Shown piece after piece: positions 7,396 through 11,460 of a stretch of 22,073 nt of DNA. A program made the position numbers and the translations under genes. This stretch comes from Elusimicrobiota bacterium (lineage in GTDB: Bacteria; Elusimicrobiota; UBA8919). Within the stretch, counting starts at the first letter, position 1, and the number at the start of each line of letters is the position of its first letter. The stretch lies in assembly GCA_043816185.1 (NCBI GenBank), contig JBDRIG010000045.1, positions 1-22,073 on the forward strand. Direction: 5' to 3'. The notes beneath the pieces were generated by a model that had not been told where the DNA came from, made no database searches, and was given only the letters and a program-made list of their open reading frames with translations.

Positions 7396-8526
7396 ATGAT
7401 ACCCAGATTTATAGAAAATCAGATATCGGCTTCTCTGAAGACAGGTAAGGTTATCGGGCTTTTCGGTGCTAGAAGAACCGGCAAAACAGTGTTGATGAAT
7501 TTAGTGAAAGAAAAATTAAAAAACAAACCTGTTTTGATGGTAAATGGCGAAAATCTTGATGTAATAGAAGTTTTGTCAAGTCGTAGATTGAATGTCTTAG
7601 AAAAGTTCGTTTCCGGATATAAATATCTTTTTATTGACGAGGCGCAAAAAATACCGGATATAGGGCTTAACCTGAAACTTATGGTTGATAGTATTCCCGG
7701 AGTTTCAATTTTTGTTTCTGGCTCGTCCGCATTTGATTTAAAAAATAAAATAGGCGAACCGCTGGTGGGAAGGAGCAAGTTCTACTATCTCTATCCGATA
7801 TCGCAATTGGAAATAAACAGACATTACGACTTTTTAAAAAATAAGGAAGGGCTGGAAGATAGATTAATATACGGAATGTATCCGCAGGTGCTTACGGAAA
7901 AAACTTTGAGAGGTAAAAAAGAACTTCTTGAATCCGTAAGAGACGGGTATCTATTAAAAGACATACTGCTGTTGGATAATCTTAAAAATTCCTTGTTTGT
8001 TTTTAATTTGTTGCGGCTTATAGCATTTCAAATAGGCAACGACATTTCATATACTGAACTTGCCGGCCATCTGAATTCAAATAAAAAAACGGTTATGAGA
8101 TATCTTGAATTGTTGGAAAAATCATTTGTATTATTTTCTTTATACGGGTTCAGCAGGAATTTAAGAAAGGAATACACCAAAACACCGCGTTATTATTTTT
8201 GGGATAATGGTATAAGGAACACTGTCATATCAAATTACAATGGAATTACCCTGCGGGATGATATCGGAAAATTGTGGGAAAACTATTGTATATCAGAAAG
8301 GATAAAAAAATTAAACTACAAAAATGTTCGTTGCAATAAATATTTTTGGAGAACTTACGACAAGAAAGAAATTGATTTAGTTGAAGAACGTGGTGGCCGT
8401 CTTTATGGTTTTGAGTGCAAGTGGAAAGCGCAAAATGTAAAACCCCCAAAAGATTTTATTGAAACATATAAGAATTCAAAATTTGCCGTTATAAATCAGG
8501 ATAATTATTGTGATATCATCGGATAA
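7396..8526 (+). CDS. AAA_14 + DUF4143 ATP-binding protein with C-terminal PD-(D/E)xK-like motif
   Basis: Walker A GARRTGKT, Walker B FIDEAQ, GSS, LVGR, YYFWDNGIRN, WEN, EIDLV...FECK. Confidence 0.88.
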   Translation: MIPRFIENQISASLKTGKVIGLFGARRTGKTVLMNLVKEKLKNKPVLMVNGENLDVIEVLSSRRLNVLEKFVSGYKYLFIDEAQKIPDIGLNLKLMVDSIPGVSIFVSGSSAFDLKNKIGEPLVGRSKFYYLYPISQLEINRHYDFLKNKEGLEDRLIYGMYPQVLTEKTLRGKKELLESVRDGYLLKDILLLDNLKNSLFVFNLLRLIAFQIGNDISYTELAGHLNSNKKTVMRYLELLEKSFVLFSLYGFSRNLRKEYTKTPRYYFWDNGIRNTVISNYNGITLRDDIGKLWENYCISERIKKLNYKNVRCNKYFWRTYDKKEIDLVEERGGRLYGFECKWKAQNVKPPKDFIETYKNSKFAVINQDNYCDIIG

Positions 8527-10608: not shown

Positions 10609-10701
10609 AAATACCACCAGCTCTGGAAAATGTGAAAAAACCAAAAATCCGGGGCGTCCTGCATTTTGATTAGCGGGAATAAATTTCTTGTTCGGTAAAA
10701 A

Positions 10702-11193
10702 ATGAAAACTGTAAAAAATAAAAACAACTATGCATTTATTGATAGCCAGAATTTGAATCTTTCAATTCGCGAACAGGGTTAGATGCTTGATTTCAAACGG
10801 TTCAAAAAATATTTAGAAGATAAATATTCTATTACAAAAGCATTTTTGTTTATCGGATATGTTCCCACAAACGAGAGTTTGTATACTTCATTACAAAAAT
10901 ATGGTTACATTTTGATATTTAAACCGACTTTATTGCTACCGGATGGTAAGGTTAAGGGCAATATAGATGCTGAACTGGTTTTGCACGCTATGATAGAATA
11001 TCCTAATTACGATAAGGCGGTGATTGTTACAGGTGACGGCGACTTTCATTGCTTAATTGAATACCTTAAAAAACAGGGTAAATTGGAAAGATTGCTAATA
11101 CCAAATCGTAATAAATATTCTTTTCTTCTGCGGAAGTTTCGACATAATATGGCTTTTGTTGATGATTTGCGCGGGAAGTTGGAGTATAAATGA
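10702..11193 (+). pseudogene. NYN (LabA/DUF88, PIN-like) nuclease interrupted by an in-frame TAG
   Basis: ATG 10702 gives MKTVKNKNNYAFIDSQNLNLSIREQG*(10780-10782)MLDF... in one frame. Motifs FIDSQN, KGNID, TGDGDF. Confidence 0.85.
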
Positions 11194-11245
11194 AAAAGGG
11201 GCATTCCGCGGGACGAACCCTTTGGATAACCCCTCATCGTGATTC
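11191..11245 (-). ncRNA. Candidate ~55-nt structured small RNA convergent with the NYN gene
   Basis: GC-rich island just downstream of a - strand promoter. Nested stems, possible pseudoknot and a 3' U-run. Inferred, not matched to a named family. Confidence 0.5.
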
Positions 11246-11251
11246 AACGTG

Positions 11252-11280
11252 AGTATATATAAAAATTTGATTTTTGTCAA
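11252..11280 (-). promoter_or_regulatory. Near-consensus sigma70 promoter on the - strand
   Basis: TTGACA (11280-11275), 17 bp, TATACT (11257-11252). Confidence 0.75.
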
Positions 11281-11295
11281 GTATTTTTTTGGAAT

Positions 11296-11460
11296 ATGAA
11301 AAATATAAACATCAGGCAAAATTTGCCGTTAAAAGATGAATATACTTTTGACTTTTTGGAATTAGGTGAAGAGCATTCGGAAAAACAGTTGGAAGTTGAA
11401 CTGATTAACAATGTTGGATCGCTGAAAAAGTCATCAACGGTCTTGATTACACAGATATAA
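11296..11460 (+). pseudogene. Internal fragment of a YhcG/DUF1016 PD-(D/E)xK nuclease gene
   Basis: KDEYTFDFLELGEEHSEKQLE motif. The preceding KYKHQAKFAV lies in a shifted frame. No N- or C-terminal domains. Confidence 0.7.

Follow-up and report, generated by a model that had tools for sequence, protein, structure and literature searches.

A conserved small RNA gene convergent with NYN nuclease genes in at least eight phyla, a candidate RNA-antitoxin module

In the VapBC type II systems, a PIN-domain toxin is paired with a protein antitoxin encoded upstream in the same operon. In the type I pairs txpA/RatA and bsrG/SR4 of Bacillus subtilis, the antitoxin is a convergent RNA and the 3' ends of the two genes overlap. 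Type III toxin-antitoxin systems (ToxIN, CptIN, TenpIN) consist of an endoribonuclease-type protein and a small structured RNA (PMC3401426, PMC5086642). The NYN.COG1432 nucleases are listed as 'function unknown' in the survey of PIN-like nucleases by Matelska et al. 2017 (PMC5499597). The present analysis concerns a gene of this last group and a small RNA gene predicted to converge on its 3' end, both found in 22,073 nucleotides (nt) of DNA from an Elusimicrobiota bacterium (assembly GCA_043816185.1, contig JBDRIG010000045.1, positions 1 to 22,073), referred to below as the window. Comparison with homologous loci confirmed the second element as a conserved and structured RNA gene of defined strand that possesses a strong promoter and a terminator, its transcription being predicted from these signals.

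The locus resembles a type III system in being a mobile two-gene pair of a nuclease protein and a structured non-coding RNA of family-specific sequence. However, the protein has an NYN fold and not one of the ToxN/AbiQ type; the RNA is a single unit and not a tandem repeat array, some relatives having two separate RNA genes; the RNA gene is separately promoted and stands downstream in convergent orientation, whereas type III RNAs are encoded upstream and co-transcribed with the toxin; and nothing suggests processing of the RNA by the toxin. The lack of a repeat array and the convergent layout had already been noted as departures from type III in a first-pass annotation made from the sequence alone, and both stood. 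The likeness would hold if the RNA binds and silences NYN, and an abortive-infection role is plausible. With the type I pairs the locus shares a separately promoted convergent small RNA, the 3' overlap and a terminator hairpin common to both strands. Antisense overlap with the NYN messenger is also present, the terminator U-run and hairpin lying over the NYN stop or last codons. In contrast to those pairs, the protein is a 163-residue soluble nuclease fold and not a short hydrophobic peptide, the overlap is limited to the terminator region, unpaired bases of the RNA are conserved across phyla and RNA genes without a toxin gene exist. The likeness to VapBC would be that a nuclease of the PIN-like superfamily is the harmful partner in a small, horizontally spreading addiction or defence module; here, however, the partner is an RNA and no protein neighbour is conserved. 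The protein belongs to the NYN.COG1432/LabA-like group by its Pfam NYN domain, its match to structure 2QIP and its acidic residues. Its clade consists of compact, single-domain proteins that share 60-96% identity between phyla and have a dedicated RNA gene, and the passages on NYN in the survey (PMC5499597) name no RNA partner for the group.

For the comparison, one genome per species was scanned. This gave 255 NYN relatives, of which the best 80 were taken and their phyla named from the record titles. They come from Omnitrophota, Elusimicrobiota, Planctomycetota, Patescibacteria, Chloroflexota, Nitrospirota, Melainabacteria and WOR-3 and from some proteobacterial bins, and their NYN proteins are 62-96% identical. 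The same minus-strand RNA element was found in NYN loci of at least eight phyla. The exact 9-mer CATCGTGAT stands just past the NYN stop codon in 57/80 loci, and with at most two changes in 74/80. Three of the six loci without it end at a contig edge (L032, L064, L079) and the other three have a variant tail and a similar hairpin (L065, L066, L069). A covariance model of the element, R1, detected it in 76/80 loci with an expectation value (E) of at most 4e-6, always on the strand opposite NYN, and matched the window at 11187-11245 with 71.6 bits (E 7.5e-16).

The promoter was examined in 72 sequences with room for it, 71 loci and the window, using the pattern TTGACA-N16-18-TATAAT on the minus strand. 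A match of at least 10/12 was found in 64/72, compared with 1.3% of shuffled copies and 3/72 on the opposite strand. TTGACA is exact in 52/72, and the -10 hexamers include TATAAT (18), TATACT (15) and TATATT (15). The end of the -10 box lies 6-9 nt ahead of the sequence AUCAC in 68/72, and the spacer between the boxes is not conserved. The first-pass annotation had proposed a minus-strand promoter, TTGACA-17-TATACT, at 11280-11252 of the window with no plausible gene behind it, and this is present as claimed. The check that it proposed, on promoter conservation and stem covariation next to NYN homologues, came out positive, with the promoter in the 64/72 loci given above and covariation in all three stems.

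In a 75-sequence alignment, the tail columns A3 T4 C5 A6 C7 A9 are invariant, and so are the middle G-C pair in the inner stem and the apical-loop G. RNAalifold on these 75 sequences predicted the outer stem (P1), with compensatory changes in 8/9 of its pairs. The structure with three helices has 89.8% of its cells paired against 78.6% in shuffles, and 0/500 shuffles reach the observed value. Double changes occur in 11/12 pairs and all three helices covary, while sliding the partners by 1-3 columns brings pairing down to 51-66%. An 86-sequence alignment built on the model agrees on the fold, though such an alignment leans towards its model. The GC-rich island and nested stems described in the first-pass annotation are present, and the promoter, 5' tail, stems and U-run are conserved or covary in 76/80 homologous loci. 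The RNA was also considered as a peptide-coding transcript. This was rejected, since 16/74 anchored loci have no AUG, no stop precedes the terminator and the stems covary.

The strand follows from several signs. P1 contains 53 G.U cells, which pair on the minus strand only, against 12 A.C cells, which pair on the plus strand only. A U-run follows P1 in the aligned homologues. Given this G.U bias, the U-run and the promoter, the minus strand is the RNA strand. These same three signs exclude the alternative that the hairpin is a plus-strand terminator and nothing else; on the plus strand the hairpin of the window is followed by CAUCGUGAU, which holds no U-run. In the window the minus-strand U-run reaches the NYN stop codon, as had been read from the sequence at first, its last U being the complement of the A in the stop codon TGA. 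In other loci the NYN stop falls within the hairpin. In L036, L038, L048, L078, L085 and others, the NYN frame extends into the RNA hairpin and adds a Lys/Arg-rich tail to the protein; this tail is encoded by the complement of the U-run and stem, and the two genes overlap there by up to about 45 nt.

A pseudoknot between ACGA of the 5' tail and UCGU of the apical loop had also been suggested. Complementarity between tail and loop stood, being kept in 96.9% of cells, but compensatory change did not appear: there are 0 double changes and, at the variable pair, 6/22 changes break the pairing and are uncompensated. A helix of about 12 base pairs would separate the 5' tail from the loop, which speaks for caution.

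The RNA gene is linked to NYN. The window copy is the only R1 match in its 1.44-Mb genome, and of five genomes taken from other phyla, four likewise carry a single copy. Among 151 genomes of the window's phylum, the RNA occurs in 11 genomes (12 places) and NYN in 10 (11 places), and both are present and abutting in 9. One genome (G118) has an intact RNA and promoter and no NYN, one (G003) a degenerate RNA, and one (G095) an NYN of 56% identity with a diverged RNA that R1 missed. Among 151 Patescibacteria genomes, NYN at E <= 1e-20 is found in 40 (46 places), about a quarter, and R1 matches in 21 (25 places). The NYN 3' end adjoins 22 of these 25 matches, two of which are in tandem behind one gene; the remaining three are solitary, with no NYN remnant by tblastn at E <= 10. 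In both phylum samples the element is single-copy and linked to NYN. No third gene is conserved (189/210 clusters of flanking open reading frames (ORFs) are singletons and the largest covers five loci), and no conserved NYN promoter was found, conservation starting at the NYN start codon. Since the flanks are unconserved and conservation begins at the NYN start, the unit consists of NYN and the RNA gene alone.

More distant relatives carry diverged RNAs. R1 gave no match at 25 of the NYN places in Patescibacteria, and 24 of these were inspected. In at least 19/24 of these loci (4, and then 15 more, 9 of them by simple script and 6 by eye), with NYN proteins at 37-63% identity, the layout is shared but the RNA differs: the promoter is convergent, the short 5' tail mostly starts with (A/U)AUCA or AUUAC, and a hairpin and a U-run follow, with differing inner sequences. 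A second, tandem RNA gene lies behind NYN at L113, L115, L125 and G292:C4:32192-32385, and the second RNA at L115 is of a type that otherwise accompanies a different NYN clade (L117).

The NYN gene itself is often damaged. In-frame stops are found in 5/80 loci, including L014, L075, L083 and G111/L040, the last with a TAG at another codon than in the window, and N-terminal truncations in G010, G035:C5, G188, G211 and G222. In four places, L092 (G118), L138 (G300:C28), L139 (G238:C12) and L140 (G204:C6), NYN is lost and the RNA gene is intact. Beside the RNA gene at L138 stands what, by eye from the translation, looks like a pair of a ribbon-helix-helix and a RelE-like gene. The pattern of NYN being broken or lost while the RNA persists supports what looks like toxin-like decay. 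The nonsense mutation in the window had been taken at first reading to fit toxin behaviour, and the several independent NYN breaks elsewhere agree with this.

These results are best explained, with a probability of about one half, by a portable two-gene module in which the small RNA is an antitoxin for an NYN toxin and acts by direct binding. The NYN gene, which encodes a metal-dependent nuclease of LabA/DUF88 type and lacks a conserved promoter, would be read from whatever lies upstream. The convergent RNA of about 55 nt would be transcribed from a near-consensus sigma-70 promoter and end at its own hairpin and U terminator over the end of the nuclease gene. Its constant production in surplus would keep NYN harmless, the RNA most likely binding the protein through the invariant unpaired bases, namely the 5' tail AUCACGA, the apical loop UNGU and the 3' bulge AAU. 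If RNA synthesis stopped, because the module was lost or a phage shut it off, the nuclease would be released. Transcription, NYN toxicity, neutralisation and binding as its mode are what we infer here. Direct binding is favoured because the unpaired bases stay the same from phylum to phylum, in contrast to the covarying stems and the drifting spacer, because NYN is the sole factor travelling with the RNA across such hosts, and because the existence of spare and of orphan RNA genes speaks for action in trans.

In its wider form, for which the odds are about even, this reading would make the locus an example of a new class of RNA-antitoxin or RNA-partnered nuclease system. The LabA/DUF88-type NYN nucleases are among the large prokaryotic nuclease families that are still uncharacterised, and each NYN of the clade would be under the control of its own RNA, about 55 nt long, separately promoted, convergent and co-evolving with it; the pair would have spread horizontally over at least eight phyla, possibly as an abortive-infection or addiction module. 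The RNA family is best filed as new, and the module as a new layout of the RNA-antitoxin kind in which the toxin fold is also new.

Several observations weigh against the antitoxin reading. In the window alone, fold and promoter are no better than chance, and it is the comparison that carries the proof: the fold z-scores of the minus and plus strands are -1.37 and -1.30, respectively, and promoter matches of at least 11/12 number 2 against 1.4 +/- 1.1 expected, both at chance level. Among the 24 distant loci inspected, 4/24 have no RNA and 1/24 is ambiguous, and the distant RNA types were assigned by simple script and eye and not by covariation. NYN decay could equally mean that NYN is dispensable, toxicity being a supposition of the model, and the 4-5 stand-alone RNA genes could mean that the RNA has a job of its own. 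The defining features of type III, that is repeats, co-transcription and the toxin fold, are missing. Finally, the strictly kept convergent overlap is just what antisense control needs, and binding alone leaves it unexplained.

This last point leads to cis-antisense control of a type I-like kind. The RNA would pair with the 3' end of the NYN messenger and cause cleavage, loss of the stop codon or decay, perhaps helped by polymerase collision, with no need of protein contact. In every type seen, the two genes converge and the RNA terminator covers the NYN stop or last codons. Neighbouring genes are co-oriented with NYN in 64/75 cases upstream and 52/68 downstream; with the nearest downstream ORF so often close by and on the same strand, and no plus-strand U-run, NYN transcription probably continues across the RNA gene. 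Antisense RNAs moreover usually have an unpaired 5' tail and a small apical loop, often pyrimidine-U-N-purine. However, complementarity in cis is automatic and leaves the invariance of tail and loop beside covarying stems unexplained; RNA genes persist where there is no NYN gene to pair with; and at L115 an RNA of foreign type adjoins another module. Known type I toxins are small membrane peptides and not nucleases of 160 residues. Antisense control as the whole explanation is therefore considered unlikely, while an antisense contribution beside direct binding stays alive because the 3' ends strictly overlap.

Alternatively, the RNA could be a working partner of NYN, serving as cofactor, guide, scaffold or natural substrate, and activity, in defence or in RNA processing for example, would then belong to the ribonucleoprotein. 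The linkage, the co-diversification and the invariant unpaired bases suit a partner as they suit an antitoxin, and the bacterial NYN proteins of this group are without known function according to the survey (PMC5499597). Against this, an invariant 9-nt tail implies one target in every host, and the keeping of the RNA where NYN is dead or gone, together with the spare RNA genes, fits an antidote better. The tail as a guide to a universal RNA was examined and rejected: in carriers, three 16S rRNAs and two out of three 23S rRNAs contain no complement of the 9-nt tail with at most one mismatch, and the third 23S has two sites with one mismatch that are absent from the other 23S sequences. Nor was there a full match to the tail complement in the 41 tRNAs of the window genome. 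The only other 11-mer match in that genome lies inside a coding region and is put down to chance. With no conserved tail target in rRNA or tRNA, and with the RNA persisting where the nuclease gene is gone, a role as cofactor is less likely, and the partner explanation as a whole is held to be improbable. The rRNA of the window genome showed a peculiarity of its own. The sole assembled piece of 23S rRNA (G000:C104:45-2673; L099, L100) has 1.7 kb spanning model positions 1785-2014 only, which suggests a large insertion of the intron or homing-endonuclease type; 16S rRNA is absent from the assembly of this genome.

Very improbable, finally, is a mere portable regulatory or structural cassette (terminator and promoter, insulator or attC-like site) with no NYN-specific role: NYN does resemble a promoterless cassette inserted in many contexts, but the element is single-copy, NYN-bound and absent at other cassettes, its promoter points into its terminator so that a short RNA is the only product, and the invariant tail and loop and strand-specific G.U pairs are unexpected of an insulator. 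An integron site of attC type or another dispersed site was rejected, as there is one copy per genome, tied to NYN, and no attC-type boxes or repeats were seen.

The features of the window locus are collected in Table 1. The predicted RNA comprises, in order, the 5' tail, P1, an internal loop, P2a, an internal loop, P2b, the loop UUCGU and the U-run. On the minus strand the GC-rich, 6-bp P1 is followed directly by UUUUU, as in an intrinsic terminator; a simple terminator scanner overlooked this hairpin owing to its loop limit of 8. The GC fraction is 0.50 at 11170-11259 and 0.2-0.4 in the surroundings. All long ORFs of the window are on the plus strand, so that the minus-strand promoter has no protein gene to serve. 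No tRNA or transfer-messenger RNA was found in the window, and Tandem Repeats Finder gave no repeat array for the RNA, its only hit being a 16-nt A-rich repeat at 10695-10725.

Table 1. Positions of the NYN gene and of the predicted RNA gene with its parts in the window.
Feature	Position	Strand	Remarks
NYN (LabA/DUF88-type, PF01936) nuclease gene	10702..11193	+	163 codons, one nonsense codon
In-frame TAG at invariant Trp27 codon	10780..10782	+	cuts catalytic Asp14 off the remaining domain
-35 box TTGACA of RNA gene	11280-11275	-	read from sequence
-10 box TATACT	11257-11252	-	spacer 17 nt from -35; AUCAC starts 8 nt later
Predicted small RNA, ~53 nt	11193..11245	-	start near 11245/11244; ends predicted from promoter and U-run
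Single-stranded 5' tail AAUCACGAUG	11235..11244	-	AUCAC.A core invariant across phyla
Hairpin	11197..11234	-	three stems P1, P2a, P2b, covarying
P1 AGGGGU/GCCCCU	11234-11229 with 11202-11197	-	outer stem
P2a CC/GG	11225-11224 with 11207-11206	-	middle stem
P2b GGG/CCC	11220-11218 with 11212-11210	-	inner stem
Apical loop UUCGU	11217-11213	-	between P2b strands
Terminator U-run UUUUU	11197-11193	-	overlaps NYN stop TGA (11191-11193)

The -35 region of the RNA gene is of a style, AAAAATACTTGACAAAAA, found at four other sites of the 1.44-Mb genome, each before a gene. An A-rich tract followed by TACTTGACAAAAA recurs at C19:7033-7063, C111:3485-3521, C2:14367-14402 and C58:1820-1846 (loci L002-L005), and at each of these sites a -10-like box and then a gene stand downstream. 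From these few places, the A-rich tract with TACTTGACAAAAA looks like the strong-promoter consensus of the organism.

With the TAG read through, the protein of the window matches the Pfam NYN profile over residues 12-129 with 52.1 bits against a cut-off of 24.2, and its AlphaFold model has a predicted local distance difference test score (pLDDT) of 89.1. Foldseek gives 2QIP as the top match of this model (E 1.8e-9, template modelling (TM) score 0.75), followed by the NYN domains of MARF1 and KHNYN, and 2QIP is also the top sequence match. The protein is 62-85% identical to 24 intact homologues, and the catalytic acidic residues D14, D89, D112 and D114 as well as W27 are invariant in 25/25 aligned proteins. 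In the window, the metal-holding acidic residues do not lie in one unbroken protein, a TAG standing at codon 27. Recoding of TAG was considered and rejected, for TAG ends 127/588 long ORFs of the genome and relatives have Trp at that codon. Given that TAG is an ordinary stop in the host genome, the window NYN copy is, on its reading frame, a dead and broken member of the family, and the RNA gene beside it is intact.

The same TAG at W27 occurs in a genome of the same genus (G035/L006), which shares the upstream flank. When the two broken genes were compared (window 10702-11193, L006 1501-1992), the first ~390 bases were identical, and the final ~100 bases of NYN and the RNA differed at many sites, mostly synonymous. 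The 3' part of the window NYN resembles a second, truncated copy in the relative, G035:C5 (L090), at 97% over residues 104-163. The identical 5' and differing 3' parts of the window and L006 genes suggest recombination between NYN copies. PADLOC run on the window NYN gave no ToxN-type model; its only hits were to an NYN model, weakly (E 2.7e-5), and to HEC-09, marginally (E 0.0065, with no matched stretch).

The flanking genes differ from locus to locus. From 237 flanking ORFs, a hand-picked 25 include restriction-modification, Abi_2, Fic, DpnI and Cas3-like genes. In the window, positions 7396-8526 on the plus strand encode a 376-residue ATPase with AAA_14 and DUF4143 domains that matches the PADLOC candidate defence family PDC-S01 over its full length (E 1e-142), which may place the NYN-RNA module in a neighbourhood of defence type. 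Past the RNA promoter, a 54-codon ORF at 11296-11460 on the plus strand covers the first ~34 of the 157 positions of the YhcG PDDEXK profile (26 bits, below the cut-off) and is probably a gene fragment left by rearrangement. A search of 50,697 phage records gave 0 matches, plasmids gave only matches below 36% identity, and IMG/VR gave one locus.

The first-pass annotation had not recognised the arrangement as a described family. Searches agreed with it: the RNA has no match in Rfam 15, and no paper on it was found in the literature searched. In the window there were 0 Rfam matches at the gathering threshold, and at E <= 10 the region searched gave only four chance rows elsewhere, of eukaryotic snoRNA and roX families. 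Fifteen homologous loci yielded one tRNA only, and 20 diverged-RNA loci yielded 0 matches at E <= 0.1. An RNA partner of NYN/LabA proteins was not found in the full-text literature, the coverage of which leaves out most subscription journals.

There are thousands of bacterial NYN/LabA (COG1432) proteins: a single query yielded at least 7,978 clusters at E <= 1e-10, all named 'hypothetical', 'NYN domain-containing' or 'LabA/DUF88', and the dedicated, co-inherited RNA provides the first testable functional handle on this clade. The RNA is short, its invariant bases are clear, and a laboratory host would make it easy to study. For annotators, the 'terminator' after these genes is itself a gene. 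If the RNA is an antidote, it would bring to the RNA-antitoxin systems a new toxin fold and a single, self-promoted, convergent layout lying between types I and III. If this is true, the pair would probably serve addiction or defence in Patescibacteria, Omnitrophota and further uncultivated lineages, about whose defences little is known.

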